Of a stretch of DNA of 64,000 nucleotides, positions 11,248 to 53,467 are shown piece by piece. How positions within the stretch are numbered: position 1 is the stretch's first letter; each line of letters starts with the position of its first letter. The notes beneath the pieces were generated by a model. The model saw only the letters and a program-made list of their open reading frames with translations, did no database searches and was not told the DNA's origin. The position numbers and the translations under genes were made by a program. Source of the DNA: Methanothrix sp. (GTDB lineage: Archaea; Halobacteriota; Methanosarcinia; Methanotrichales; Methanotrichaceae). The DNA lies in contig OY821645.1 of NCBI GenBank assembly GCA_963682135.1, forward strand, positions 2,784,001 to 2,848,000, read 5' to 3'.

Positions 11248-12159
11248 ATGTACAGGGTAGTCAGACGCAGGGAGATGGCCGGTGGAGATATCATTCTCAA
11301 TGAGATTGAAGCGCCTAAGATCGCCCGAATTGCCCAGCCGGGACAGTTCGTGATTCTCAGGGCTAATGAGGTTGGAGAGCGTATCCCCATGACCATGGCA
11401 GACATAAATGCAGCAAATGGGACCATTACCATCATCTACCATGTGGTGGGCCGGTCCACGGCGCTATTCAAGATCCTGCAGGTGGGTGACTATTACCTGA
11501 ATGTGGCCGGACCACTGGGTCGGCCTACCGAAGTAGGAAATGTGGGAACAGCCATCTGCGTGGGCGGAGGAACGGGACTAGCCGTTCTCTATCCCATTGC
11601 CAAAAAACTAAAGAGCCTGGGAAATCGGGTGGTGAGCATCATCGGGGCTCGCACCAGGGAGCTTGTCATCCTTCAAGAGGAGATGGCTGCCGTCTCCGAT
11701 GTTCTCATGATCTGCACGGATGACGGTTCATTGGGGCGCAAAGCAGTGGTGACAGAGCTATTAGAAGAGGCCCTGAAAGAAGAGGTCCCGGGATTAGTAG
11801 TAGCCATCGGGCCTGTGCTAATGATGAAAATGGTCAGCGATGTCACGCGGCCCCGTCAGATTAAGACCATCGTCAGTCTCAACCCCATCATGATTGACGG
11901 CACTGGCATGTGTGGCAGTTGCAGAGTCGAAGTGGGTGGAGAGACGAAGCTGGCCTGCGTGGATGGGCCGGAGTTTGACGGCCACCAGGTGAACTACGAG
12001 CTGCTCATGGCTCGCCTCTCTGCCTTCCAGGAGGAGGAGACGCAGGCCCTGCGGGCGCATGGGGAAGAAGAGATGCATAGATGCCGCTTGAAAGAGGGGC
12101 ATTTGGATGATATGATGGGAAAAGCCAAATACATAAACGGGAAGATATCTAACCAATGA
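11248..12159 (+). CDS. Sulfide/dihydroorotate dehydrogenase-like FAD/NAD-binding subunit (NfnA/SudB-like)
   Basis: PGQFVILR, ERIPMT, GPLG, GGGTG, MIDGTGMCGSCRV, CVDGPEFD [2Fe-2S] motif. Confidence 0.88.
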   Translation: MYRVVRRREMAGGDIILNEIEAPKIARIAQPGQFVILRANEVGERIPMTMADINAANGTITIIYHVVGRSTALFKILQVGDYYLNVAGPLGRPTEVGNVGTAICVGGGTGLAVLYPIAKKLKSLGNRVVSIIGARTRELVILQEEMAAVSDVLMICTDDGSLGRKAVVTELLEEALKEEVPGLVVAIGPVLMMKMVSDVTRPRQIKTIVSLNPIMIDGTGMCGSCRVEVGGETKLACVDGPEFDGHQVNYELLMARLSAFQEEETQALRAHGEEEMHRCRLKEGHLDDMMGKAKYINGKISNQ

Positions 12160-12785
12160 AGCGGCTCACTGCATATGTCTCAGGCAAAGTCCAAAGGGTA
12201 GGCTATAGGGCTAGGGTTATCCAGTCAGCAAATGGCTTGGGTCTAAAAGGCATAATCGAGAACCTGAGCGATGGACGAGTTCGAATTATTGCTGAAGGCG
12301 ATGAAGAGAAGATGAAACTATTCGAGGGTGCAATAGACATAAAGAATACATTCATCCAGGTCACTTCTATTGAAAAGATATATTCTCAGCCTTATGGCGA
12401 ATTTGGCAGCTTTTATAAACTTGTCGGGACGGGCGAGACCGACTCCCGCCTTGATGAGGGAATTGGCGTACTGAAAGACATGAGAGATCTGCTCATTGCA
12501 ATTTGCGGTAAGCAGGATAATATGCTCGGCAAGCAAGACCAAATGCTCGGCAAGCAAGACCAAATGCTCGGCAAGCAAGACCAAATGCTCGGCAAGCAAG
12601 ACCAAATGCTTGGCAAGCAAGACCAAATGCTCGGCAAACAGGATGAAATCCTTTTCGAGATCAAGGATATGAACAGTAGCCTCAACGATAAAATGGATAA
12701 GCTTCTGGATAAGAGCGACATTATTGAATTGAAGGGTGATGTGGCCGAGATGAGGTCTGCTCTGAGGGCAAAGGGTATTATTTAG
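12156..12785 (+). CDS. Acylphosphatase-domain protein with heptad-repeat coiled coil (copy 1)
   Basis: VSGKVQRVGYR, GIIENLSDGRV; (GKQDQML)n; C-terminus ALRAKGII. Confidence 0.85.
   Translation: MKRLTAYVSGKVQRVGYRARVIQSANGLGLKGIIENLSDGRVRIIAEGDEEKMKLFEGAIDIKNTFIQVTSIEKIYSQPYGEFGSFYKLVGTGETDSRLDEGIGVLKDMRDLLIAICGKQDNMLGKQDQMLGKQDQMLGKQDQMLGKQDQMLGKQDQMLGKQDEILFEIKDMNSSLNDKMDKLLDKSDIIELKGDVAEMRSALRAKGII
12507..12653 (+). repeat. In-frame 21-bp tandem repeat, 7 units (GGCAAGCAAGACCAAATGCTC)
   Basis: Directly visible; five near-perfect internal units flanked by two variant units. Confidence 0.95.
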
Positions 12786-12976
12786 CATGAGGGCCTAATT
12801 TGAGCCAAGCAGTACACTGCCGGTGATTACTGCAACGTCTCTGTGCAAAAGTGGATGAGTGGTCATTCTTCCGGATGGCGGCCCAGGGCGAATGGCGCAT
12901 CTCCGGTGGGATTTCTAAACCAATAACATGCAAATATTTATAGCTATGTTAAACTCATTACTCTTGGAGGTTTTGC

Positions 12977-13867
12977 ATGAAAAATATTCTAACAATAATT
13001 GCTTTCATTTCCCTGCTATATCTGCCTGTTGTCCTTGCAGAGGATGTAAGCGTTGATCAGCTCAAGCAGATGACAACTGCATCCGCGGACAATCTCACAA
13101 CCTATACCTACTCCCGCTCCGCAGAAAGCACTATCATCTACAGCAATGAATCGCTCCAAGATAAATTTGCTGCAGTCAAGGCCACCGAGGGTAAAGTGAA
13201 CCTGACAGCACAGTCCGGTTGGTGGAGCCATCAGCTTACAGATATTGGAACCGGGCAAGTCCTCTACTGGCAAGGATACTTCCTAAATGGCACGGAAATA
13301 TGGAAAGAGGGAGATAACTGGACCCAATTTGTCATCGACGATCCGGATCTGGTTATGGCGGACTATAACGAGCTTTCCAGTCAAGTGGCGCTCCTATACT
13401 ACAGCAACCTATCGATCAAAGGAACGGAGACCATTGACGGTGAAGACTGCTACGTGATTGCGGCAGAACCGATCCCATTGATCAAGAAGACCATCTTGGG
13501 CACGCAGATCTATGCCGCCTATCTCTCTTCGCCTTTCCCAATGCCCGATGAATTCGACAACAAGAACCTTGACTTGGATAATACCTCAATTCAGGGTAAC
13601 AGCAATGTCTCAGTAACAGCCTGGATTTCCAAGCAGTCCTCTCTGCTAAAGAGAATTGAGATTGATTCCAGCTTAACCCTGACGCCCTCGATTCTCAAGA
13701 TAGTGGAGCAAAACTTTACCATACAGTCGACTCTGCAGGAAAGGACCGATTATGGCAATTTTGGTGAGAGCGTGCAAATTGTGCTTCCCGAAGAAAGCCA
13801 AAATCAATCACCCCGCATAAAGGGCGCAGATTGGAGATGGGCAATCTTTGGACTGGTGGAGCCCTAA
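12977..13867 (+). CDS. Secreted hypothetical protein (possible LolA/LppX-like fold)
   Basis: Signal peptide; GTETIDGEDCYVI; WISKQSSLLKRI; DYGNFGESVQIVLP. Confidence 0.65.
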   Translation: MKNILTIIAFISLLYLPVVLAEDVSVDQLKQMTTASADNLTTYTYSRSAESTIIYSNESLQDKFAAVKATEGKVNLTAQSGWWSHQLTDIGTGQVLYWQGYFLNGTEIWKEGDNWTQFVIDDPDLVMADYNELSSQVALLYYSNLSIKGTETIDGEDCYVIAAEPIPLIKKTILGTQIYAAYLSSPFPMPDEFDNKNLDLDNTSIQGNSNVSVTAWISKQSSLLKRIEIDSSLTLTPSILKIVEQNFTIQSTLQERTDYGNFGESVQIVLPEESQNQSPRIKGADWRWAIFGLVEP

Positions 13868-13883
13868 TTGGAGGGATAAATAG

Positions 13884-14357
13884 ATGAAATTTTTCAAGAA
13901 TATTCTCTTGAGCTTTTGCATACTGGCATTTCTGTCCTCAGGTATGCTTGCGGCCATGGCACAAGATCCAGCCGATCAGGCACGCTCTTACTGTGTTAAG
14001 TCAGGCTATCTTTACAGTTCATCTCCCGGTGTCAATGGTGGTCAAGGAATGTGTGTGTTCCCTGATAAGAGTTGGTGCGATTCCCAGGCATTTTTCCAGG
14101 GAACCTGCAATCGCAGCCTAAAGCCAAATATCATTCCGGGATATGTCTCAGAATCGGATGGCATGTGGGTACAATCGGTTGAATCGATCTGCCGGGGCAG
14201 GGGAGGCAGTCTGAGGAGCGTCCATACGCCTTATGGTGATATTACTATGTGCGCGTTTGCTGATGGAAGGACCTGTGATCTGAAATCTCTGGCAGAGGGA
14301 AGATGCGGCGGGGATATGTGGCTGGCATATGCTCGTTCCTGGCTTGATGCGCCGTAA
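13884..14357 (+). CDS. Secreted protein with tandem DUF333-like Cys-rich domains
   Basis: Signal peptide; YCVKSG...GMCVFPD..WC..FFQGTC and CRGRGG...MCAFADGRTC. Confidence 0.75.
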   Translation: MKFFKNILLSFCILAFLSSGMLAAMAQDPADQARSYCVKSGYLYSSSPGVNGGQGMCVFPDKSWCDSQAFFQGTCNRSLKPNIIPGYVSESDGMWVQSVESICRGRGGSLRSVHTPYGDITMCAFADGRTCDLKSLAEGRCGGDMWLAYARSWLDAP

Positions 14358-14466
14358 ACTACTTATATTTTCTTCTATCTTTTAATAAAAATTTTTACAT
14401 ATAAAATTGAGCGACCAAACTGTTATATTTGAGCAAAAATATCCATAAACGGTAGGATGATCGCCA

Positions 14467-15573
14467 ATGAATTCTGATGAAGTTTGGTTTTCTCATAGAG
14501 AAAAAATCTTCCAAATCGAAGATGGAAAGGTCGAATGGACAGATGAGCCGAAGGTATGGAACTGGGATCACTGCACAATAACGCTCGTAAAATCCCCAAA
14601 GAAAAGGCTCAGAGTAGTGGTAAGGAGCAACGCCAACCGAAACCAGACATCGTTTAAGGTCAACCGGCCAATGACCCTGAGATATATGCTGGGTTTCGAT
14701 ATTGATCAGGTTTATCCGCTGAAATGCGAGAGTCCGAATTCGAAAAAAGACTCTGAAAATAGTAACCTATCATGGACCGGTCCGGGGGATAGATGGGTAT
14801 TTCAACTGGATGAAGATTATTGGATATGGGAGTACAAAGGAGACGGATCGGACGTCACTTCCTCGAATGTCTATAAGATCTATCAGGAGATAATGGGAAA
14901 TCTATCAGGCACTCACCAGGACGGCTTTGATCAGGTCTTCGATTTGCAGCCGAAAAGCCTGAGCGATAAGATGGTCATAGATCATCTCCAATCTCCACCC
15001 GGCAAAATGTTGGATCGCATTATTCCCGCAATATACCAGCCGGCAGTAGATGGCTTAAAGAACTATCTTCGAGAGGTACATTGTGCTCAAAAAGATCTTG
15101 ATGGTGGAATTTCTGAGGTAGAGGTTACCCTGATCTTTAATAACGAAGAATTAAGGAAACATCGCCTCCTGGACATACCATATCGGGAGCTTCGCCGCTT
15201 GATGTATAATCGAGACAGCGATGTGGAGAGCTTTAAAATACGTATCGACAGAAACAATATGCAAAACAATCGTTTCATCTTCAAAAACATCCACAGCATA
15301 ATCGATGGTAGAAACAATGATTTGAATGAGGATTCGATACATGGTGATCCGGACGGTATTGGAAATGCTATCAGCTACTACTTAATTGACTACGGTCATC
15401 CGGTAGTGTTTGTGAACACATCCAATCATGCCATGGCCGAGCATGATGCCAACCAGAAGCTATGGAAATGGGAGTATGTGCCTGGCGTAATGGATTCGCC
15501 GCTGATTCTGGGAAGCAAGACTCGTAAAGAAATAGATGCTGAATTTGATCGAGGGCAGGTAAACAAAACATGA
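14467..15573 (+). CDS. Hypothetical protein
   Basis: 368-aa ORF; no recognised family; ATGA overlap with the next gene. Confidence 0.7.
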   Translation: MNSDEVWFSHREKIFQIEDGKVEWTDEPKVWNWDHCTITLVKSPKKRLRVVVRSNANRNQTSFKVNRPMTLRYMLGFDIDQVYPLKCESPNSKKDSENSNLSWTGPGDRWVFQLDEDYWIWEYKGDGSDVTSSNVYKIYQEIMGNLSGTHQDGFDQVFDLQPKSLSDKMVIDHLQSPPGKMLDRIIPAIYQPAVDGLKNYLREVHCAQKDLDGGISEVEVTLIFNNEELRKHRLLDIPYRELRRLMYNRDSDVESFKIRIDRNNMQNNRFIFKNIHSIIDGRNNDLNEDSIHGDPDGIGNAISYYLIDYGHPVVFVNTSNHAMAEHDANQKLWKWEYVPGVMDSPLILGSKTRKEIDAEFDRGQVNKT

Positions 15574-16319
15574 GAAAGATCATCAAGATAGACCCGCAGC
15601 TATGTAATGGCTGCGGTGAATGCATCACCGCCTGTGCGGAAGGCGCCATCGAGCTTAAGGACGGAAAAGCCCGGGTGGTGAGCGACAGCTTCTGCGACGG
15701 CCTGGGCGCATGTCTGGCCGTTTGCCCCCAGGGTGCTCTCACCATCGAGGAGCGCGAAGCCACGCAGTTTGACGAGAAGGGAGCCAAAGAGCATAAAAGT
15801 TCGGCCCACAATCATGGGCGAATAAATCCTGCAAGATGTGCGGACCCTTCTTCCGTTGTCACGCCTTGCTCGGCTCCCATTACCCTGAAGCCTAATCAGG
15901 AGGTTCATGCAGATTTTTCCCGCGAAAAGATAAAACCCGGCGAAGATCATGCCAATGAATTGTGCGGTTGGCCCATCCAGATGAGGCTGGTGCGCCCCTG
16001 GGCCCCTTACCTGCAGGGCGCTCGCCTGCTGGTAGCCGGAGACTGCACTGCTTTTGCCTATCCTGCCATACAGCAGGACTTCATAAAGGGCCGCGTGGCC
16101 CTGGTAGGTTGCCCCAAGCTCGATGAAACCGGGCCCTTTGTGGAAAAGCTGGCCGAGATTCTCAAGCAAAACGAGATCAAGGACATTGCTGTGCTGCACA
16201 TGACTGTGCCCTGCTGCTCTCAGCTTGCCCAGCTGGTTTCACAAGCCGTGCACCGATCTGGGAAAGATGTGCCTGTGAAGAGCTATGTGGTGGGAATCGA
16301 AGGAAAGCTAATTACTTAA
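15570..16319 (+). CDS. 4Fe-4S dicluster ferredoxin-domain protein with C-terminal Cys-rich domain
   Basis: CNGCGECITAC, CDGLGACLAVCP; WPIQ, GDCTAF, GCPKLD, VPCC. Confidence 0.85.
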   Translation: MRKIIKIDPQLCNGCGECITACAEGAIELKDGKARVVSDSFCDGLGACLAVCPQGALTIEEREATQFDEKGAKEHKSSAHNHGRINPARCADPSSVVTPCSAPITLKPNQEVHADFSREKIKPGEDHANELCGWPIQMRLVRPWAPYLQGARLLVAGDCTAFAYPAIQQDFIKGRVALVGCPKLDETGPFVEKLAEILKQNEIKDIAVLHMTVPCCSQLAQLVSQAVHRSGKDVPVKSYVVGIEGKLIT

Positions 16320-16362
16320 CTGACAATTTGATTCTTCAGCAGCAGAATCTAAATAGCTGAAT

Positions 16363-17457
16363 TTGGAAACGAATACATGGGTGAATCAGGTTATGGATTT
16401 CAGCCGTCGTTTTGACATGGCAGCAGGCTCTCTGGTCTTCCTGGTCTTTCTCGCCACAGTTTACCTGACCAAGGACTTCCTTACCACTATTTTGCTGAGC
16501 ATAGTCATGGTATTTCTCCTCAAGCCGCTTTTTGCCGCTTTCTTTCGTCTGACCCGGCAGAGACAGATATCCTCCTTATTCTCCATATTGATTGTCTTCA
16601 TCTTTATTCTGGCCATCCTGCTCGGCATCACCACTGTGCTCCTGGTGGAGATATCCAATCTGGAAAGGTCTGGGGCCCTGTCAGGCATCCAATTCACGGT
16701 CATAACCCAGGAGATCGACAGATGGGCCATGAGCGCCCTTCCTGTTTGGGTTTATAATTATGTGAATGTCATAATACTTAAAAACGTACAGGAGATAAGC
16801 GACATCCCTGTGACCATTGCCACCTGGCTCTTTCCCATTGTGCAGCGAGAGCTAACCTCATTTGCCTCCAATCTGCCCGTGCTTTTTGCTCAATTGATTG
16901 TAGTGGTGTTCTTCACCTACTACATCCTCATCGACGGCAAAGAGTTCCTGGCCAAGGCTGTGGACCTGGTTCCCAGGCAGAAACGGGCAATTGTTCTGGA
17001 TTTTCTGCAGGAGCTTAGCGGCATCTATAACACCCTTTTTACAGTCTACTTCACCACATCTATGTTAAGCGGTGTTTTGGCTGCGATCGGCTTTTCCATG
17101 CTGGGCATGCCCTATCCCTATTTGATGGGGGTTGTTGTGGGCATCTTTACGCTCGTTCCCATGCTGGGTCCGCCTTTTGTATTCATTCCACTGGCGCTCT
17201 ATTATCTATTCATGGGGGATGTGATCCGTTTCTTGATAATCATGATATTCGGAACGGTGGTTCTCATGGTGATCCCTGAAAATGTAATCCGTCCTCATCT
17301 AGCCATGAAAAGCTCCAGGATTCATCCTATAGTCACATTGCTCGCGTACACCGCCCCCATATTCGTAGTAGGAATCATAGGCGTGATTATCGGCCCCACT
17401 CTCTACGGCTTTCTCCTGGCGGCCTACCGAGCAGCTATCAATAACCGGGAGACTTGA
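16363..17457 (+). CDS. AI-2E family (PerM-like) transporter
   Basis: Multi-TM; YYILIDG, ENVIRP, IHP, GVIIGP. Confidence 0.87.
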   Translation: METNTWVNQVMDFSRRFDMAAGSLVFLVFLATVYLTKDFLTTILLSIVMVFLLKPLFAAFFRLTRQRQISSLFSILIVFIFILAILLGITTVLLVEISNLERSGALSGIQFTVITQEIDRWAMSALPVWVYNYVNVIILKNVQEISDIPVTIATWLFPIVQRELTSFASNLPVLFAQLIVVVFFTYYILIDGKEFLAKAVDLVPRQKRAIVLDFLQELSGIYNTLFTVYFTTSMLSGVLAAIGFSMLGMPYPYLMGVVVGIFTLVPMLGPPFVFIPLALYYLFMGDVIRFLIIMIFGTVVLMVIPENVIRPHLAMKSSRIHPIVTLLAYTAPIFVVGIIGVIIGPTLYGFLLAAYRAAINNRET

Positions 17458-17522
17458 CGAATGGAAAGCTTTATCTCTTTTTATAGGTCACTAGTTTAGT
17501 TCAGTTCCATGGAGCTTTAAAG

Positions 17523-18815
17523 ATGGGCGTAGAGAATGGCTTGGAGAAGTTTGGTGCTATTGATATTGCAGAGCTGCTGCTGACTGCAGATATTTATAAC
17601 CGCACAGAGAATTTGACTGAAGACGACCTACCTCCCAATATTCGCAAGCATTACTTCGATGGGCAGACTAGAAGCGTCAAGAGGCCGATTTATGTAACCA
17701 GTGCCGATGCACAGAAGATTTATGGCATTGAGAATGTCAAAGCGGTTATAAAAGATCTCACTTTTGTGGCTTTTGAGGAATTTGGCTCCCAGCTCCGGCT
17801 GACCGTATTCGATGTGGCGGCCAAGTGGTTTGCCAATCAAAAGGATCTGGCAAGGATTAAATCGAATCCCACATTGGCCTACTTCTATGAGAACTATGAT
17901 TCTCTGGATGTGAGCTATGCTCAGGCCAGGAGCGCCAATAAGCCTCTTTCAGCCGACCGGGAATGGATAGACGCTAAGATTAAGGAGCTTTGCAAAGATT
18001 CCAAGGAGGCGGAAGATCTTCTTAAGCTGGCCTACATCAAGGCCCCTGAGGATGTTAGGGATAAAATTGCCGGTCTGATTTTGACAGAGGATCAGAAGTC
18101 TGAGATAGAAAAGATGGGCAAGGCTCTGAAAAATCGGCTATATCTGCGAGAGATCGGGCTCTACGAAATAGGCAAACTTCTTTTCGTCGGCCCGCCGGGA
18201 ACCGGCAAGACCTCTACCGCCCGGGCTCTTTCCAGTTGGTTTTCTCTACCCATTGTGGAAGTTCGCCTCTCCATGATCACCAGCCAGTATTTGGGGGAGA
18301 CGTCCAAGAACATAGACAAGGTCTTTGAGCTGGCCAAGAGGCTATCCCCCTGCATACTGCTCATTGATGAGTTCGATTTTGTGGCCAAGACCAGGACCTC
18401 AGATGAGCACGGCGCCATGAAGAGGGCCGTCAACTCGCTCCTTAAAGCCATAGATGAGATCAGCCTGGTGGAGCATGGCGTTTTGCTCCTGGCGGCCACC
18501 AACCACCCCCAGCTTCTGGATTACGCGGCCTGGCGGAGGTTTGACAAAGTATTGAGCTTTCCCCTGCCGGACAAGGATATGAGGCGCAAGATCCTGGACA
18601 AGGTGATCTCCCGCATTGATGCAGATGTCGATACGGCTGCTCTTGCAGAAGCGACGGAGGGCTACTCGGGCTCGGACCTGCGGTTGGTTATCAGGGAAGC
18701 GGTGCTCAATGCTCTCCTGGAGGATCGCAAACATTTGAGCCAGGAAGATCTGGATATTTCTATTGAGGAGTTCCGGCGCAGGATCTCTGATTACAAGCGG
18801 AGCGTTACGGCATGA
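17523..18815 (+). CDS. AAA+ ATPase
   Basis: Walker A GPPGTGKT, Walker B LLIDEFD, ATNHPQLLDYAAWRRFD. Confidence 0.92.
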   Translation: MGVENGLEKFGAIDIAELLLTADIYNRTENLTEDDLPPNIRKHYFDGQTRSVKRPIYVTSADAQKIYGIENVKAVIKDLTFVAFEEFGSQLRLTVFDVAAKWFANQKDLARIKSNPTLAYFYENYDSLDVSYAQARSANKPLSADREWIDAKIKELCKDSKEAEDLLKLAYIKAPEDVRDKIAGLILTEDQKSEIEKMGKALKNRLYLREIGLYEIGKLLFVGPPGTGKTSTARALSSWFSLPIVEVRLSMITSQYLGETSKNIDKVFELAKRLSPCILLIDEFDFVAKTRTSDEHGAMKRAVNSLLKAIDEISLVEHGVLLLAATNHPQLLDYAAWRRFDKVLSFPLPDKDMRRKILDKVISRIDADVDTAALAEATEGYSGSDLRLVIREAVLNALLEDRKHLSQEDLDISIEEFRRRISDYKRSVTA

Positions 18816-18843
18816 GTTGCGCCATATGGGCCATGAGGAGCGC

Positions 18844-19587
18844 ATGAAGGTCACTCTCCTGGGTACGGGCGATGCCATTGGTACGCCCAAGATCGGCTGC
18901 AAGTGTCCCGCATGTATGGATGCCCTGCGTGGTGGCAGAAGCCGCAGGATGAGGTTTTCCGTTCTCATCGAGTCGGATGAGGATGACGGAAGGGTCTTGG
19001 TGGACAGCAGCCCTGATCTGCGCTGGCAGCTATTAAAGAAGGATATATCCAGCGTGGACGGCGTTATCTGGACGCATGCCCATTATGATCACTATGCCGG
19101 CTTTGGGGATTTTCACCGGGTGCAAAGTCATGTGGATGTTTATGCCCTCAAGGAGACTATGGACTATATCTTAAACTATCTCTATTTCCTCAATCCCGTG
19201 CGCCACGACGCTGTAGCCTATCAGCCTTTCGATATTGCAGGCATGCAGTTCACCCTATTTCCCGTCAACCATCCACCCACAGAGACGGTGGGGGTGCGCA
19301 TAGACGACGGCAATAAAGTGGTGGTGATCACCAGCGACACCAAGATGGAGATTGCGGCAGAAAGCCTGGAGCTGATGAAGGATGCTGATTTGATGCTGGC
19401 GGATGCCATTACCCCGCCCGGCTACACCATCAGCAAGCACATGACGGCAGACGAAGCCATTGCTCTGGGGGAGCGATTGGGGGCGAAAAGACTGCTGCTA
19501 ACGCATCTCAGCCACCTCTATCCGCCCCATGAGATTGCTCTCAAGGAGTGGCCGCTGGGCCATGACATGATGGAGATTGTGCTGTAA
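18844..19587 (+). CDS. Metallo-beta-lactamase fold hydrolase (PhnP-like)
   Basis: LLGTGDAIGTPKIGCKCPAC, THAHYDH, THLSH; start placed at ATG 18844. Confidence 0.88.
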   Translation: MKVTLLGTGDAIGTPKIGCKCPACMDALRGGRSRRMRFSVLIESDEDDGRVLVDSSPDLRWQLLKKDISSVDGVIWTHAHYDHYAGFGDFHRVQSHVDVYALKETMDYILNYLYFLNPVRHDAVAYQPFDIAGMQFTLFPVNHPPTETVGVRIDDGNKVVVITSDTKMEIAAESLELMKDADLMLADAITPPGYTISKHMTADEAIALGERLGAKRLLLTHLSHLYPPHEIALKEWPLGHDMMEIVL

Positions 19588-19657
19588 AATCCTGCAAAAC
19601 TATTCTTTCGCTGAAATATAGCGTTAAAGACATATACAAAGAGCTAAAGACAGTTAG

Positions 19658-20329
19658 ATGATGAAAAGGCTTACCGCTTATGTCTCGGGAAGTGTTCAGA
19701 AGACAGGATACCGAGCAAAAGTTGCCGATTTTGCCAGAATGCTGGGACTAAGAGGTACTGTGGAGAACCTTGATGACAGCCGAGTGAAAATATTGGCAGA
19801 AGGCAATGAGGATAAGCTGAAGTGGTTCGAAGAGGCCCTTATTATTAATGATAATTTGATACAAGTCTCCTCTATAGAAAGAGAATATTCTGAACCCATG
19901 GGTGATTTTAGCAGGTTCTACAAGCTTGTGGATAAGGGAGAGACAGACTCTCGGCTGGATACTGCCGCATCTCATCTAAATAATCTCATTGGTGCAGTGA
20001 ATAATTTGAATGATAATCTTGGCCGAAAGATGGATGTTATGATTGGTTTGAATGATAATATGGGCAATAAGATGGATGTTATAATTGATTTGAATGATAA
20101 TCTTGGCCGAAAGATGGATGTTATAATTGATTTGAATGATAATCTTGGCCGAAAGATGGATGTTATGATTGATCTGCAAAGAGAGGCCCTCGATTCCCAG
20201 GAAAACCTGCTGGAAGAGGTTCATGAGTCCAGAAAAGATCTTAAGGGATATCTCGAACAGAGATTTGAAAAGCTGGAATCGGAAGTAACTGAGATGCGAG
20301 CTGCTCTCAGGGAAAAAGGGATTATTTAG
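19658..20329 (+). CDS. Acylphosphatase-domain protein with 14-aa repeat coiled coil (copy 2)
   Basis: VSGSVQKTGYR, GTVENLDDSRV; (LNDNLGRKMDVIID)x4; C-terminus ALREKGII. Confidence 0.85.
   Translation: MMKRLTAYVSGSVQKTGYRAKVADFARMLGLRGTVENLDDSRVKILAEGNEDKLKWFEEALIINDNLIQVSSIEREYSEPMGDFSRFYKLVDKGETDSRLDTAASHLNNLIGAVNNLNDNLGRKMDVMIGLNDNMGNKMDVIIDLNDNLGRKMDVIIDLNDNLGRKMDVMIDLQREALDSQENLLEEVHESRKDLKGYLEQRFEKLESEVTEMRAALREKGII
20006..20173 (+). repeat. In-frame 42-bp tandem repeat, 4 units
   Basis: TTGAATGATAATCTTGGCCGAAAGATGGATGTTATAATTGAT and variants, directly visible. Confidence 0.93.
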
Positions 20330-48782: not shown

Positions 48783-50420
48783 TTGCAGTTGCTAGCTCTA
48801 ATCCAAAATGTGGGATATATGAACTCATACATTATATATATATTTGTAGTTTGTTTGCTTCTATCCTCAGTATTACTGCTAATTAGGGATTTCGAATATA
48901 AGTATTATGTTTTATCCTTATTGGTATATATATCGTTTTTAATCATATATCCGCAATTACTTTCTCCGTATATAATTGGTGTAGATTCTCATTTTGAACG
49001 AGCAATGGTTGAATTAACTTTAACTAAAGGCCAATGGTATAGTGATCTTCCTGAAAATTTAGTCAATGCAGCGTTGTCGATCTGCATATTTGCCCCTATT
49101 ATTTCGCTTGTAAGCGGGCTTTCCGTTGACATAGTATTAAAGTTTATCTTATCGATTTATCCAATAATTTCAATTGCAATTATATGGTTATTCAACAAAA
49201 AAATATTCAGTTTTACAAATAAAGAGGCATTCATTTCGCTTCTATTTCTCATAGGCTCTAGCCAATATATGCAATTATCTATTTATGGTCGTCAAGAGGT
49301 TGCGTTTTTTCCTGCATTATTATTTATCTATTTAATATCTATAAAGAATCATTTTGCGCGATTCAAAATAGTATGCTTATTATTGCTGATTGGCTTAGTA
49401 ATCTCTCATTATGCCTCTTCTTTATTTTTGATTACTATTTTTATTACTAGCAGCCTGATAACGAGTTTGGTAGCGAAATCACATGGGCGATATAATGCCT
49501 GTTTAGAATTTGCTCTTATTAGCTTAGTTCTGGTGATCTTTTGGCTTCTATTCGTAGTCAATGTGACTAAAGTGAGTATTATAGTTTCTGCCCATAATGC
49601 CTTACTTGGTGTGATAGAATTTAATACCGGAAATATATCACCAGGAGCAGCGGATTCACTGAATCCTTCGTTCGTAGATATATTCTTTAAAATAAATTAC
49701 GTTATTAATATTATGACTTCTATATTAATATCATTGGGTATATTATTTACTATATATAGAACTGTATTAAATGAAAAAGTTGAATCGTATGTAATAACAA
49801 AATATCTATTTTTTTCAGCTTTATTAGTTTTTTTTGTTTTCAGCACTTTTTTACCTACCGTCTCTCTTTTTTATTGGCCTGAGCGCTCCTATATTTTATT
49901 ATTATTATTTTGCAATGGATTTTTAATTATTGGATTTCGAAATATCGTAGGAATTGTGTGGTCACACTCTGCAACAATTGATAGAAATCACAGCTTATAT
50001 GTTGGCAATATTATTATTATGTTAATTTCTATAATAGTTTTATCACATTTAGTTCTTCAGATTGGACTGCCTACTCAGCTCGTATACGGGCATGTGGATA
50101 GTAAATATTTTACAGATATTAAAAATAACCATTATACATTAGCCGAAGAGGTGGATGCAGTCGATTGGCTAAATGACTATAAAGCTGAAAACAGTACAGT
50201 ATTTACGAGTTTATATGGCAGAGGCATCTTGCCTTTAACAAGCTATGGAATGCTCAAATCCAGCAATATTATTACATTTAATTCGATTGAGAATATACCA
50301 AGATCTTCACAAAGAAATCACATATATATGCAGAAAGAAGGATTTATTAGATATGGAACAGATATTGTTAAAGAGTCAAATATATATAATTCGTATACAG
50401 CAAAAATATTCCTCGCCTAA
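48783..50420 (+). CDS. Multi-pass membrane protein (DUF2206-like; possible GT-C/polymerase)
   Basis: Many TM helices; IGVDSHFE, RQEVA, SHY; very AT-rich; true start uncertain. Confidence 0.7.
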   Translation: MQLLALIQNVGYMNSYIIYIFVVCLLLSSVLLLIRDFEYKYYVLSLLVYISFLIIYPQLLSPYIIGVDSHFERAMVELTLTKGQWYSDLPENLVNAALSICIFAPIISLVSGLSVDIVLKFILSIYPIISIAIIWLFNKKIFSFTNKEAFISLLFLIGSSQYMQLSIYGRQEVAFFPALLFIYLISIKNHFARFKIVCLLLLIGLVISHYASSLFLITIFITSSLITSLVAKSHGRYNACLEFALISLVLVIFWLLFVVNVTKVSIIVSAHNALLGVIEFNTGNISPGAADSLNPSFVDIFFKINYVINIMTSILISLGILFTIYRTVLNEKVESYVITKYLFFSALLVFFVFSTFLPTVSLFYWPERSYILLLLFCNGFLIIGFRNIVGIVWSHSATIDRNHSLYVGNIIIMLISIIVLSHLVLQIGLPTQLVYGHVDSKYFTDIKNNHYTLAEEVDAVDWLNDYKAENSTVFTSLYGRGILPLTSYGMLKSSNIITFNSIENIPRSSQRNHIYMQKEGFIRYGTDIVKESNIYNSYTAKIFLA

Positions 50421-50529
50421 TTTTTAGTTCCGAGAATGAGCATAACAATAAACAATATCTTCGATCATAGTTGATTGATTCGCCCTAGAAACCTTCAAAT
50501 TTCGTCCTCTCTTTTTATACCTAATCTAA

Positions 50530-50855
50530 AGAGGATGACAAAATCAGAGGTTAACATGAATCCTCGATTGGCTAATGGTCTCATAAACGAAAACCAATGG
50601 ATCTGGACATCAAGCTCGGATATGAAACGCCCATGCGCCCCAGGCAGAGGCTCACACGTGACGGATGGAAAACCACATATTGTAATCCGTTCACGTTAAA
50701 TGTGGTTATGGGCAGTGAAGGCTGACAAGTTTATGGGACGGCTGATCCCGCGATTGAAACGAGCCAAGATCCCCCGAATACGGGACTGCGTCATAGAACG
50801 CGTATGGGAAATTATCTCATATCAGGGAAACATCATCTGCCCATACCAGGCAGAA
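50530..50855 (+). ncRNA. Candidate IS110 bridge RNA region (strand inferred)
   Basis: Upstream non-coding region with hairpins; 50665-50679 is the perfect reverse complement of the element right end 52202-52216. Confidence 0.55.
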
Positions 50856-50861
50856 ATGTAT

Positions 50862-52181
50862 ATGAAAAAACGAAGAGATAGAGTTTGCGGTGCAGATGTC
50901 CATAAAGATTTGATCGTGGCAACAATAACAGGCGATGATTTTCAACCGATTCGAATGGATTTTGGGACAACGAAAACTGAACTTAGGAAATTTCGCAAAT
51001 GGCTGGTAGCCAACAAATGCGAACAGGTGGCATTTGAGGCTACTGGAGTCTATTGGATACCGATCTATGATGCATTGAGCAAAACCATAGATACAATCGT
51101 TGCCAATCCGTTGCAGATAAAGACTATTCCCAACGACAAATCTGATTCAAAAGACTCAAAGCGGATTGCATCTCTTTGCCTGAACAATCAAATCAAGCGC
51201 TCTAGGGTATTTACCAATGAAGACCGAGATCTCAGGACTCTAACTCGAGCCAGGTCCGGATATGTCAAGACACGAACTCAGTTCCGGAATCGGATACACA
51301 AATACCTTTCATCATGCGGGATCAAACTCAGTTCTTGCATGGACGACATATTCTGCAAATCCGGCAGATATATTTTGGACGGTCTGGCAAAAAAGAAGTC
51401 CATCGAGAAGATCTTGAAAGGCATCCCATCCGGAAAAATAAGGAAAAAGCAAGACGAAATTAGGGTAGCACTTGAAAGAAGTCTTGATGATACAAACAGA
51501 ATGCTCTTAATAGATGCCCTGGAATTCATTGATAATCTCGAATCCAAAATAGAAAAGCTGAGCCATGAGGTCCTGAAAAAGATTCAGCAGAAGAGCAAAG
51601 ACCTGGCCATCGTCATGTCAATTCCAGGAATTGGATTCGTATCCGCATCGGCCATATTGTCTGAAATTGGAAATTACCGTGATTTTCAGACACCTGACCA
51701 ACTCGCTAAATGGTGCGGCCTCAATCCTGGAGAAAGCGAATCTGCGGGCAAAAAGAAAAAATGCGGAATTACAAAGAAGGGTTCCAAGTACATTAGAGTT
51801 ATGCTGGTTCAGGCTGCAAAGACCATCGGAAGAATGAAAAATACACGGCTTTCCAGGTTCTTCCAGAGGTTGGTCAAAAAGAAGGAGCCAAATGTAGCCA
51901 CTATTGCTGTAGCCAGGAAGCTTATCTGTCTCATTCATCATCTTCTTATCAACCAGGAGCTGTATCAGGAAGGTGAATGCAGATCGAGAGGAGCAAGTCA
52001 GGATAAGTCCTGCCAGGCACCTTCATTTCAGGATGAGCAATTGACGGATAGAGTAGCTGCAATTGTGGACGCCTTTTATCACCTGAAAGAGGGCAGCAGG
52101 AAGAATGCTCTTATGCGTGAGCTTGGAGCCATTTCTATAACAAAACCCGGCCAGAAAAGGCCATCCGGGGGAGGTGAATAG
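50862..52181 (+). CDS. IS110-family transposase/recombinase
   Basis: GADVHKD, FEATGVYW, KSDSKDS (DEDD); SIPGIG, GLNPGESESAGK (catalytic Ser region), AVARKL. Confidence 0.93.
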   Translation: MKKRRDRVCGADVHKDLIVATITGDDFQPIRMDFGTTKTELRKFRKWLVANKCEQVAFEATGVYWIPIYDALSKTIDTIVANPLQIKTIPNDKSDSKDSKRIASLCLNNQIKRSRVFTNEDRDLRTLTRARSGYVKTRTQFRNRIHKYLSSCGIKLSSCMDDIFCKSGRYILDGLAKKKSIEKILKGIPSGKIRKKQDEIRVALERSLDDTNRMLLIDALEFIDNLESKIEKLSHEVLKKIQQKSKDLAIVMSIPGIGFVSASAILSEIGNYRDFQTPDQLAKWCGLNPGESESAGKKKKCGITKKGSKYIRVMLVQAAKTIGRMKNTRLSRFFQRLVKKKEPNVATIAVARKLICLIHHLLINQELYQEGECRSRGASQDKSCQAPSFQDEQLTDRVAAIVDAFYHLKEGSRKNALMRELGAISITKPGQKRPSGGGE

Positions 52182-52261
52182 GTCGCCTCCTGATTATGAT
52201 TTATGTGGTTTTCCATGGGAAATCTAATTCACTACCCGCAATACGATATATGGAGAAAACG

Positions 52262-53467
52262 ATGTATTCATTTAGTGATATGAAATTATTAGTTATAACA
52301 GAAAGGTATCCTCATAAAATGGATTCCGTAAGTGCATCTTTTGTAAAACATCAGATCAAATATATAAAGAATTATATTGATACAGTATATGTAATATCGC
52401 TAACGGCATTCATCCCTAAATTTTTAGCTAAATGCTCTTTCATGCATCCGTTATGGCGGATGGATGCGTATGCAGAAAATTATAATTATGATAATGTATA
52501 TGTGTACTATGCGAAACATTTTAATCTTCCTTTATCTTTTTGCATGAAACATAAAGCAGAAATAACTTTAAATGTAGTTAAAAATATAATAAATAGAAAA
52601 AAGTTGGATTTTGATTTGATTCATGCTCATTTTATCGATCCTGCGGGCTATGTAGCAGTGAAACTTAAATATTTATATAGAAAACCAGTTATATTGACTG
52701 TTCATGAAAATAGAGAATGGTACTTAAAATTAATCTCTTCTCCGAGTAAGAAGACGTCCTATACTCTGCAAAATGCAGATAAAATAATTCGGGTCAATAA
52801 GAATGATATAGAAAATTTAAAACGTCTGGTAAAAAATGATTCTAAATTGATATATATGCCTAACGGATATAATTCTGAACTATTTAAGCCGTTGAATATG
52901 CTAAATTGCCGCTTGACACTTGGGTTAAGGCATGACAAAAAAATAATTTTAAATATTGCAAGTTTAGAGACTAAGAAGGGACACGTATTTTTGATAGATG
53001 CAATGGAGAACGTTTTTAAAATTAGAAAAGATGTATTGCTTTATATTATTGGGCAAGGATCTCTGGAAAAGGAACTTAAGCAATTGGTTGCTGAGAAATG
53101 TCTTCAAGATTGTGTCATCTTCGCGGGTGGCAATAAACCTCAAGAGGAGTTACCGATTTGGATAAATGCCTGCGATATATTTATTGTGTCAAGCTTAAGC
53201 GAAAGCTTTGGGATTGTCCAGATTGAGGCCCTAGCTTGCGGAAAACCAGTGGTAGCCACTTATAATGGTGGGAGCGAAGAGGTCATAATAAATGAGAAAT
53301 TGGGTGTCCTAGTTGCATCAAAGGACTCCCAGGGATTGGCATGTGCAATATTACAGGCTCTTGATGCCAAATGGGATGAGGAATTTATAATAGATTACGC
53401 CAATAATTATGCATTGAATCATACAACTAAAAATTTAATTCAGGTATACGAATCTACTCTGGCTTAA
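52262..53467 (+). CDS. GT4 glycosyltransferase (TuaC-like)
   Basis: IHAHF, KKGH, SLSESFGIVQIEALACGKPVV; start after GGAG. Confidence 0.88.
   Translation: MYSFSDMKLLVITERYPHKMDSVSASFVKHQIKYIKNYIDTVYVISLTAFIPKFLAKCSFMHPLWRMDAYAENYNYDNVYVYYAKHFNLPLSFCMKHKAEITLNVVKNIINRKKLDFDLIHAHFIDPAGYVAVKLKYLYRKPVILTVHENREWYLKLISSPSKKTSYTLQNADKIIRVNKNDIENLKRLVKNDSKLIYMPNGYNSELFKPLNMLNCRLTLGLRHDKKIILNIASLETKKGHVFLIDAMENVFKIRKDVLLYIIGQGSLEKELKQLVAEKCLQDCVIFAGGNKPQEELPIWINACDIFIVSSLSESFGIVQIEALACGKPVVATYNGGSEEVIINEKLGVLVASKDSQGLACAILQALDAKWDEEFIIDYANNYALNHTTKNLIQVYESTLA

Follow-up and report, generated by a model that had tools for sequence, protein, structure and literature searches.

A predicted bridge RNA of an archaeal IS110 element carries a hairpin loop complementary to the element's own right end

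If the non-coding DNA ahead of a recombinase gene contains a hairpin whose loop is an exact complement of the far end of the same element, what does that loop recognize? The question is raised by an IS110 element in the window, a stretch of 64,000 nucleotides from a Methanothrix-type genome, from the first letter of which all positions below are counted. Bridge recombinases are intensely studied as genome-writing tools, and this lineage bears on the role of the 5' hairpins of bridge RNAs, on that of subterminal repeats and on the range of natural architectures.

Where does the element begin and end? The features on which the answer depends are these:

50628..52222, + strand: IS110 element, 1595 bp with the right-hand AAA core counted once (from copies and relatives)
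50618..50627, + strand: left target flank GGATATGAAA (from comparison of the flanks of three genomic copies and relatives)
50625..50627, + strand: left-hand shared core AAA (from the same flank comparison)
50862..52181, + strand: IS110-family RNA-guided recombinase, 439 aa (Pfam, NCBIfam, alignment to IS621)
52169..52191, + strand: terminator-like hairpin over the stop codon, then a T-rich tract (from a consensus scan only; conserved in the downstream alignment by eye)
52215..52222, + strand: left donor arm and core ATGGGAAA, the right-hand core AAA being 52220..52222

The sequence-only reading of this locus had recognized an intact IS110 element with the marks of a bridge RNA in its non-coding left end, and this is supported. 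It had also placed the start at 50478, with about 380 bp of non-coding sequence ahead of the recombinase, and here the copies disagree with it. The genome carries three identical copies (100%), the other two matching the window over 50618-52222, and their flanks differ outside GAAA(C). Since the start falls at 50624-50629 in these three copies and in every relative, 50478-50623 belongs to the host flank, and of the non-coding sequence ahead of the gene just 234 nt are the element's own; the ends of the relatives fall at the same places as those of the window copy. We conclude that 50628-52222 is almost certainly an intact IS110-group insertion sequence, the 234-nt left end of which encodes a bridge RNA.

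The layout is that of the IS110 group: a long non-coding left end of 234 nt (50628-50861) precedes the gene, and a short right end of 41 nt (52182-52222) follows it. So is the manner of insertion, which is site-specific, makes no target duplication and uses a short core common to target and donor: GAAA(C) is found at each junction, most of 76 records have (A)TTGAAAC as their target, and the window copy together with relative L004 allows the crossover to be placed within AAA. In the IS110 group the RNA is expressed from a promoter at the junction of a circular intermediate; here a single head-to-tail tandem junction, CCATGGGAAAC joined to GCCCATG, was found, in L039. A joint in an RNA run that might have passed for a circle junction was rejected, being a copy nested in another copy (in assembled contigs that cover a small share of the element).

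The recombinase is an intact DEDD/Ser enzyme, as had been read from the sequence. It matches Pfam DEDD_Tnp_IS110 (PF01548, E 2.3e-21) and Transposase_20 (PF02371, E 3e-24), and NCBIfam NF033542 with 254 bits, the cut-off being 140. The latter match covers residues 8-366 of 439 and leaves a C-terminal tail of 73 aa, the extension that had been estimated at about 70 aa; its motif (an acidic pair, a hydrophobic run and A-G/F-Y) is retained in relatives at 39-47% identity. D12, E59, D95, D98 and S294 align to D11, E60, D102, D105 and S241 of IS621, allowing for a 2-residue offset of the PDB chain (8wt6), and all five are invariant in five relatives. Both the N-terminal DEDD (RuvC-like) domain and the C-terminal Tnp domain with its catalytic serine, as expected of the IS110 group, are present.

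How might the left end fold? The structural elements predicted from the alignment of relatives are:

50634..50654, + strand: first 5' hairpin, SL1 (RNAalifold consensus)
50656..50696, + strand: second hairpin, SL2, its stem formed by 50656-50666 with 50685-50696 (folds)
50707..50715, + strand: 5' strand of a long-range stem, TATGGGCAG, pairing with 50837-50845 (RNAalifold)
50782..50818, + strand: donor-binding loop (RNAalifold and pair counts)
50837..50845, + strand: 3' strand of the long-range stem, CTGCCCATA (RNAalifold, pair counts)

These models give the left end (234 nt) the fold of a bridge RNA whose guides are of the usual short kind. Over the whole fold pairing extends to 97% of 2108 cells, where shuffles give 95.2%, and two-sided changes number 59 cells against 24, a count that none of 500 shuffles equalled; slid registers of the structure leave only 21-51% paired. 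In SL1, 95% of cells are paired and two of the six pairs change on both sides. The SL2 stem, 11 pairs with one bulged T, had been described correctly and occurs in both the MFE and the centroid fold; its outer part is 89% paired across relatives, with one pair passing from A:U (29) to G:C (24) and two pairs alternating between G:C and G:U. The long-range stem surrounds both guide loops and is 99% paired, and because it is almost invariant it gives little evidence of covariation. An invariant GGC/GCC stem closes the target loop. The donor loop comprises a stem (GGGA 50782-50785 with TCTC 50815-50818), one pair of which passes from A:U to G:C in 14 of 62 sequences, an inner hairpin (50788-50801) and the donor guide (50804-50811). 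An Rfam search of 50300-52400 returned nothing relevant, the one match being a snoRNA at chance level outside the element (E 0.93). The loop of SL2 had also been proposed to form a pseudoknot with ATGTGGTT. That segment is present at 50700-50707; its complementarity to the loop is not conserved, the 8-nt complement occurring in one of 62 distinct left ends, a 6-nt one in another and 5 nt or fewer in the remaining 60. A conserved pseudoknot switch through 50700-50707 is not supported.

If the fold is that of a bridge RNA, where are its guides? Three candidate segments can be assigned:

50725..50734, + strand: right-target-guide candidate ACAAGTTTAT, in which GTTT (50729-50732) is complementary to AAAC
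50752..50760, + strand: left target guide GATTGAAAC, identical in sequence to the left flank and to the end of the CRISPR repeat
50804..50812, + strand: left donor guide ATGGGAAA(T), equal to the last 8 nt of the right end

Covariation across about 90 relatives ties the target guide to the left flank and the donor guide to the right end. The left target guide equals the flank at positions -4 to -7 in 99, 98, 89 and 91% of 82 records, and the target-guide 8-mer has at most one mismatch in 66 of 76, with variants that include TAAAAAAA, TATATAAA, CCCTAAA and GGCTAAAA. In 61 of 62 records, over four variants (ATGGGAAA, ATGAGAAA, ATGCGAAA and ATGTGAAA), the donor 8-mer exactly reproduces the right end of its own element, and the donor guides of distant relatives also match their right ends (ATAGGAA, ATGCGAA, ATACGAAA, ATGGTAA); the identity in the window copy of ATGGGAAAT at 50804-50812 with 52215-52223, claimed earlier, is exact. 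The right target guide appears to be short and to covary only in part with the right flank. The AAAC that lies opposite it is the core plus the last base of the repeat; right flanks start with C in 31 of 38 cases in the window's subfamily, and in other subfamilies the segment tracks the right flank, CATCCTTT accompanying AAAGGATG in L093 and CACCCTTT accompanying AAAGGG in L092. The target loop would accordingly hold a left and a right target guide, as it does in the IS110 group.

Donor loops of the IS110 group hold a right donor guide as well as a left one. No right donor guide was found here by eye or by a column scan, in a set where 39 of 62 sequences have the same right-donor bases. On its 5' side the donor loop has only 2 nt, and no run of columns follows the right-donor bases. 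Three candidates, AUGGGC at 50709-50714, CGUU at 50694-50697 and the UAAGGUUU segment in L108, were dropped because none follows changes in those bases. Differences between subfamilies dominated a mutual-information scan that set all RNA columns against donor and target positions, and only its direct guide diagonals are usable.

What, then, does the target guide read? The predicted target is ATTGAAAC, 8 nt that form the conserved 3' end of many CRISPR repeats; the left flank of the window copy, GGATATGAAA, resembles such an end (GGATTGAAA) with one additional base. The two other genomic copies lie inside a type I-B CRISPR array of 16 repeats that adjoins genes for Cas6b and Cas3. In the window's subfamily at least 25 of 47 distinct insertion sites are in arrays, an array being called where a second copy of the same 30-mer occurs at spacer distance (26 of 48 site rows, one of them a duplicate). 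At least five different repeat families have been targeted, every one of which ends in ATTGAAAC. Besides repeated insertion into arrays, the data contain tandems and insertions into the guide-coding DNA of sister copies. A CRISPR-repeat target does not figure in the sequence-only reading. In the literature searched, no paper was found that ties an IS110 guide to CRISPR repeat ends.

By analogy with IS621, insertion would proceed from a bridge RNA with two internal loops. In the target loop GAUUGAAA(C), which has the sequence of the left flank, could pair with the opposite strand of that flank, and GUUU on the 5' side of the loop could pair with AAAC. In the donor loop AUGGGAAA repeats the last 8 nt of the element, and recombination would cross within the shared AAA. 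The right flank, that is the spacer, would be read for about one base only. Because ATTGAAAC is read and the spacer hardly at all, the family lands at the border of repeat and spacer and is co-directional with transcription of the array. It would be an RNA-guided transposon tuned to a motif common to many CRISPR repeat families. Cas6 cuts 8 nt before the repeat end. Since the copies are co-directional with the array, pre-crRNA read-through and Cas6 cutting could in principle supply a ready-made 5' end for the bridge RNA, which is speculation.

We return to the loop of SL2. The two segments concerned are:

50665..50679, + strand: SL2 loop segment ATGGAAAACCACATA, an exact 15-nt complement of the right end
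52202..52216, + strand: right-end copy TATGTGGTTTTCCAT, complementary to the SL2 loop and overlapping the donor-guide match by 2 nt

ATGGAAAACCACATA is the exact reverse complement of TATGTGGTTTTCCAT (15/15), as first noticed, and the match lies within the true boundaries of the element. Between the 41-nt right end and the 234-nt left end no exact inverted match is longer, and of 1000 mononucleotide shuffles, in which the best match was usually 6 and at most 13, none reached 15. In the fold 13 of its 15 bases in the loop are unpaired, and of 12 single-sequence folds 8 leave most of the segment unpaired. A complement of 7-18 nt persists, with compensating changes, in relatives down to 35% protein identity, and at 35-47% identity it is kept although the letters differ: L108 has a 14/15 complement (ACGTAAAACTTGTTA against TAATAAGTTTTACAT) and L110 has ATGAAAGCA against TGCTTTCAT. 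The 62 records contain 26 distinct combinations of loop and right end, in all of which positions 1-3 and 5-9 pair; position 4 is G:C in 8, A:T in 9 and, in one subfamily, an A:A mismatch in 9, and position 11, at which A:T switches to U:A, is paired in 24; the relatives share ancestry, so that these counts overstate the independent events, the signal being carried by roughly six to eight lineages. The invariant AUGAAAA/TTTTCAT core yields no covariation information.

The run of complement with an element's own right end exceeds the mean with those of other elements in 14 of 17 representatives (e.g. 17 against 8.1 and 15 against 9.1). In the other three, L107, L114 and L109, it is no longer than with the ends of other elements, because the core is common to all. 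Loop and right end therefore change together across homologues, which was the test that the sequence-only reading had proposed for itself. We conclude that the 15-nt complement is far beyond chance and, since it persists in distant relatives with compensating changes, that it is to all appearance selected. A near-palindrome at the right end, TTTTCCATGGGAAA, was considered as the cause of the likeness between loop and donor guide and rejected, being lost (by eye) in L108 and in the TTTTTCAT subfamily.

The loop had been taken for the guide itself, a long match in place of short bipartite guides. Since short guides of the usual kind occur in other parts of this RNA, where they covary with the flank and the right end, the SL2 loop is instead an additional, third complementarity. 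What might it do? The reading that we favour, tentatively and at somewhat less than even odds, is that it contacts the DNA of the right end by base pairing next to the donor guide, in the manner of a long subterminal inverted repeat that is read by RNA. The loop would pair with the + strand at 52202-52216, directly inside the 8 nt of the donor guide, which would read the other strand with an overlap of 2 nt, so that the RNA would hold the right-end arm of the donor on both strands. The left copy of the inverted repeat would thereby act as RNA in a third, long guide-like contact, which may compensate for the right donor guide that was looked for without success. That the left copy is displayed as single-stranded RNA is argued from the compensating and G:U changes of the SL2 stem. 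The duplex would fall on the same arm as the donor guide and, at 10-18 nt, is far longer than known bridge-RNA guides, those of IS621 being 4-9 nt (PMC11208158); such a geometry is not among the solved IS621 complexes as that source describes them. A wider proposal, that subterminal inverted repeats of the IS110 and IS1111 groups are read by RNA and that we see here a three-guide bridge RNA with a dispensable right donor guide, is possible and somewhat more doubtful.

Might both copies act as DNA instead? They would then form a long subterminal inverted repeat like that of IS1111, with the recombinase binding each copy or the copies pairing within one strand for excision or copy-out. The IS1111 group is defined by subterminal repeats of 11-13 bp with the right copy 3 bp from the end (PMC11187229), and here 3 nt (GGG) separate the right copy from the AAA core. 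An IS110-group version of 2-3 bp flanks the donor (PMC11208160), copy-out with top-strand transfer has been proposed for an IS110 element in a preprint (10.1101/2025.10.25.684509), and the same covariation of loop and right end would be predicted. However, the distance of the left copy from the end is 37 nt where IS1111 has 7, and the copy falls exactly in a hairpin loop. Compensating and G:U changes on the sense strand maintain the stem of that hairpin, for which a protein site in double-stranded DNA would have no need. The long non-coding region is moreover upstream, unlike that of nearly all IS1111 members (PMC11187229). We consider this explanation unlikely.

An RNA-RNA contact seems to us equally unlikely. 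The leader loop would find its partner at the 3' end of the mRNA for the recombinase, or in right-end sequence that forms the 5' end of transcripts started upstream of a circle or tandem junction, as a switch of the leader between bridge-RNA and mRNA folds or as a mark of junction-derived transcripts. Both segments are on the coding strand, so that a single transcript can contain both, RNA-RNA regulation typically uses duplexes of 10-18 nt, the right copy is closely preceded by a terminator-like hairpin and a T-rich tract, and the L039 tandem supplies a head-to-tail junction. On the other hand, if transcription ends at the hairpin and T tract (52169-52200) the mRNA would be without the right copy, and it is left unexplained why in every lineage that copy abuts the donor arm within 2 nt.

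It is less probable still that the right-end segment belongs to a promoter, directed outward or placed at the junction, with a T/A-rich box some 30 nt before the end and a start near the junction, which the loop RNA and the recombinase would occlude in feedback control, a matter of cis-regulation and not of donor recognition. A conserved T-rich block (TTTGAT-like) does lie about 27-34 nt before the end in all subfamilies (by eye). The sole promoter scan used bacterial sigma-70 sites, however, and its result was set aside, that model being inapplicable to an archaeon. Finally, a complement without function, a by-product of the shared A-run/T-run core and common descent, is very improbable: the core is nearly invariant and non-cognate pairs already reach runs of 8-9, but the shuffles stop short of 15 and the flanking letters vary by lineage while complementarity stays (CCACAUA/TATGTGG, CCUCAC/GTGAGG, ACUUGUUA/TAATAAGT, GCA/TGC).

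Were the loop indeed a third guide to right-end DNA, donor recognition would be much longer than the 14 nt of IS621, the purpose of subterminal repeats would be explained and there would be a natural way to lengthen the donor specificity of bridge editing. The element is a clean natural example: one copy of its long inverted repeat lies in an RNA loop on a conserved stem, and because that copy is so held, the question of RNA versus DNA is directly testable by compensating mutations.

How does the element compare with known systems? With IS621 (IS110 group, E. coli; PDB 8wt6) it shares the recombinase family with its aligned catalytic D, E, D, D and S, a long left and a short right end, guides that carry left-flank and right-end sequence, and an order of 5' hairpins, target loop and donor loop (as the architecture is given in PMC11208158). 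It differs in its weak protein similarity (E 4.6e-6) and 73-aa tail, in a core of AAA instead of CT, in the flank-sense guide lying 3' of the inner hairpin instead of 5', in the right donor guide, of which none was found, and in an additional hairpin loop with complementarity over 10-18 nt to the right end. Since the host is an archaeon, a sigma-70 junction promoter cannot apply. The ISEc21 seekRNA (IS110 family) likewise comes from an upstream non-coding region, and its top-strand-matching segment lies 3' of the bottom-strand-matching one, the order found here; ISEc21 is bacterial and targets a conserved site in transposase genes of the IS3 family, and a complement of loop and right end is not in the description that PMC11187229 gives of it.

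The IS1111 group (ISEc11, IS4321/IS5075) is alike in the length of the repeat, here 10-15 nt, and in the place of the right copy; its left copy is 7 bp from the left end, whereas here it is 37 nt in and in a hairpin loop (PMC11187229). IS1111 members have a long non-coding region (seekRNA) downstream, with a few exceptions such as ISMtsp17 (PMC11187229), whereas only 41 nt follow the gene here. Copies of IS110 in Thermoanaerobacter, among them a dimer, have also inserted repeatedly into CRISPR arrays; these are bacterial, and the account in PMC4852346, which predates bridge RNAs, reports no match of guide and repeat. The cyanobacterial Tn7-like transposons described in PMC11837452 are likewise specialized on CRISPR arrays, which are argued to be a safe and widespread target, but they reach them by protein targeting (TnsD-like), at a fixed place in the spacer and with a transposase of an unrelated family.

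Where does the element begin and end? The genome, a single 3.04 Mb contig, holds two further copies, each 100% identical to window positions 50618-52222, and a fourth, L004, at 66% DNA identity. When flanks are compared, the copies become identical from GAAAC on the left and diverge again after GGGAAA on the right; the window element's end points are shared by 17 loci in genome bins of Methanothrix and Methanotrichaceae and by 79 metagenome loci. We conclude that the element occupies 50628-52222. The start at 50478 proposed in the sequence-only reading must be abandoned, since 50478-50623 is host DNA, the copies and relatives ending elsewhere. The junctions of L004 (CTCTAAAC/GCCC on the left, GGGAAA/GGGATGG on the right) and the right junction of the window copy (GGGAAA/T) place the crossover inside the shared AAA, so that the C after AAA belongs to the element. 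Its features are as follows.

Features of the element (window positions)
50656-50696: SL2, the second 5' hairpin of the left-end RNA
50752-50760: left target guide GATTGAAAC, in the first loop, of the same sequence as the left flank
50804-50811: donor guide ATGGGAAA, in the second loop, equal to the element's last 8 nt
50862-52181, + strand: recombinase ORF, 439 aa

The left junction at L039:1601 is a head-to-tail tandem (right end, AAAC, left end), found also in the upstream flanks of L110 and L112; such junctions have been described in IS110 dimers. A short piece upstream of L112 has a loop-like ATGAAAATGGC, 3 nt further on its complement, and then a right end; this piece may be an internally deleted mini-element. 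Downstream of the window element, the mechanically called ORF of a GT4 glycosyltransferase (52196-53467) begins within the right end; its true start is probably about 40 nt or more past the element, and the gene lies in the path of any outward transcription off the right end. Lower-depth contigs of sequencing runs X2, X3 and X6 have 35 nt in common with the left end (50639-50673, up to GGATGGAAAAC), which there follow a CRISPR repeat end and give way to unrelated AGGATCTATCGAC. This form, absent from the window's genome, where all three matches of a 19-mer are known copies, may represent another element, or a truncated one, of a co-occurring strain.

The recombinase is, as first read, an intact DEDD/Ser IS110 enzyme. 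It carries the Pfam domains DEDD_Tnp_IS110 and Transposase_20, and matches the NCBIfam profile 'IS110 family RNA-guided transposase' over residues 8-366 (254 bits against a cut-off of 140). Alignment to IS621 (PDB 8wt6) puts D12, E59, D95, D98 and S294 at the catalytic positions, and all five are invariant in 5/5 relatives. The C-terminal extension noted earlier at about 70 aa is borne out as a 73-aa tail beyond the profile match (residues 367-439, 51962-52178), in which a short motif (acidic residues, a hydrophobic run, then A-G/F-Y) is kept across relatives L107-L118 at 39-47% identity. The tail co-occurs with the extra 5' hairpins.

What RNA does the left end encode? The consensus structure, from an alignment of 62 distinct left ends, has two 5' hairpins; in addition, 50707-50715 pairs with 50837-50845 in a long-range stem that encloses two internal loops of the same build: stem, 5' linker, inner hairpin, guide, stem. 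As written, 97% of its 2108 cells are paired, against 95.2% in shuffles. Changes on both sides occur in 59 cells, compared with 24 in shuffles, and 0/500 shuffles reach 59; slid registers give 21-51% paired. The SL2 hairpin (50656-50666 with 50685-50696; 11 pairs, one bulged T) recurs in the MFE and centroid folds of the left end, and its stem is kept through an A:U to G:C switch (29 versus 24 sequences) and many G:U pairs on the sense strand. The proposed pseudoknot partner of its loop, 50700-50707, exists in this copy but is not conserved, occurring in just 1/62 left ends.

Target-guide bases equal flank positions -4 to -7 in 99, 98, 89 and 91% of 82 records, and the 8-mer has at most one mismatch to the flank in 66/76, across variants such as TAAAAAAA, TATATAAA, CCCTAAA and GGCTAAAA. 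The first loop's 5' linker contains GTTT, the complement of AAAC. In the window's subfamily 31/38 right flanks begin with C and are otherwise unrelated to each other, which is what spacers would give; in subfamilies with other targets the linker tracks the right flank (L093, L092, L074, L089). The donor guide equals the element's own last 8 nt in 61/62 records, in four variants, and the match extends to relatives at 35-47% identity; in the window ATGGGAAAT at 50804-50812 repeats the right junction, 52215-52223, as the sequence-only reading had noticed.

What, then, is the target? Both of the other identical genomic copies lie within one array of 37-nt repeats ending in GGATTGAAAC, each exactly at a repeat/spacer border. 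This array (L102, G000:C1:2272000-2291900, at 11866-19696; 16 repeats) adjoins Cas6b and Cas3 genes, which lie upstream of it on the same strand, and has degenerate repeats at its far end; from this, the array is transcribed in the direction in which the copies point. Among 48 distinct sites of the window's subfamily we counted as arrays those in which the 30 nt preceding the insertion recur, with at most four mismatches, at spacer distance up- or downstream. These number 26/48, or 25/47 once a duplicate view of one copy is removed, and two further sites have a repeat family known from arrays elsewhere. Insertions have struck at least five distinct repeat families, every one ending in ATTGAAAC; (T)ATTGAAAC or a near miss closes the remaining sites, the window copy's GGATATGAAA being an example of the latter. 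The window's genome contains 132 ATTGAAAC sites, of which 52 form the ends of repeats from three CRISPR families and 3 fall within copies of the element itself. Besides the family of the array that was struck, two repeat families of this genome have the same ending (25 and 11 copies) and are without the element. The element's own DNA is also a target, because the target guide has the target's sequence: at L045 (left flank), L007 and L057 (right flanks) and an X1 contig (joint 52222/50771), a sister copy's guide-coding DNA holds the insertion, directly after GATTGAAAC. From these comparisons we regard it as secure that this is an IS110-group element with a bridge RNA predicted to target the conserved end of CRISPR repeats. 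The diverged subfamily (L004 at G000:C1:3001936-3003390, L082, L089-L098) inserts at CCACCCTAAA/GGGATGGGG within a longer imperfect palindrome (GCGTGCGGCC ... GGGCCGCACGC), which looks more like a REP-type repeat than a CRISPR one.

The SL2 loop presents ATGGAAAACCACATA (50665-50679), the exact reverse complement of TATGTGGTTTTCCAT (52202-52216), as originally observed. Between segments of 234 and 41 nt, an inverted match of 15 nt was reached by 0/1000 shuffles (usual value 6, largest 13). The 62 records of the close family reduce to 26 distinct loop/right-end combinations, and record counts overstate independence, because the relatives represent some six to eight lineages. Duplex positions 1-3 and 5-9 are paired in all 26 without variation; position 4 has G:C in 8 combinations and is split between A:T and A:A, 9 each, in the others; at position 11, which switches between A:T and U:A, 24/26 are paired; positions 12-15 pair mainly in the window's subfamily. 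The A:A-mismatch subfamily has 13-14 more pairs beyond the mismatch, with CCUCAC opposite GTGAGG where the window has CCACAU opposite ATGTGG. A wider search matched 41 of 401 genomes of the phylum; among the 29 new loci scanned (L107-L135), a profile built from the aligned left ends detected the RNA in 12. Wherever the right end is readable the complement is still present, in different letters.

Loop and right end in distant relatives
L108: ACGTAAAACTTGTTA versus TAATAAGTTTTACAT, 14/15, one wobble, one mismatch
L110: ATGAAAGCA versus TGCTTTCAT, complement
L109: 10 pairs, two of them wobbles
L107: 8 pairs
L112: 8 pairs
L114 group: 7/8 pairs

In an alignment-free test the cognate run exceeded the non-cognate mean in 14/17 representatives and had no advantage in the other three (L107, L114, L109). 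The loop segment is mostly unpaired in 8/12 single-sequence folds. Loop and right end thus covary across homologues, by the switch at position 11 and by complements in other letters, and the sequence comparisons indicate that the complement is very probably under selection.

How might it act? We favour, tentatively, pairing between RNA and DNA, in which the bridge-RNA loop would display the left copy and pair with right-end DNA. Three observations incline us to this: an RNA loop exposes the left copy; the right copy lies directly beside the 8 nt that the donor guide reads, on the other strand and with a 2-nt overlap; and neither the donor loop, whose 5' linker is just 2 nt, nor a scan of the RNA columns yielded a second donor guide of the usual kind. 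A subterminal inverted repeat acting as DNA, as in IS1111, is unlikely. Such repeats are of 11-13 bp and lie 7 and 3 bp from the ends, a definition that suits the right copy but not the left. Pairing of RNA with RNA, within one transcript or between transcripts, we also doubt. Occlusion of a promoter at the junction seems quite improbable, and a complement without function extremely so.

How does the proposed RNA–DNA pairing, and the element at large, compare with known systems? The literature has established both bridge and seek RNAs (PMC11208160, PMC11208158, PMC11187229, PMC13626964, 10.1101/2025.10.25.684509). IS110 copies in CRISPR arrays of Thermoanaerobacter were described in 2016, with no link to a guide in the text available (PMC4852346), and Tn7-like elements that target CRISPR repeats are already known (PMC11837452). 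Among the papers covered by our literature search, none linked an IS110 guide to repeat ends; titles and abstract openings on subterminal inverted repeats and seek or bridge RNAs yielded no repeat copy in a bridge-RNA loop. Here the flank-sense guide lies 3' of the inner hairpin. This is opposite to the guide order of IS621 (PMC11208158) and the same as that reported for ISEc21 (PMC11187229).
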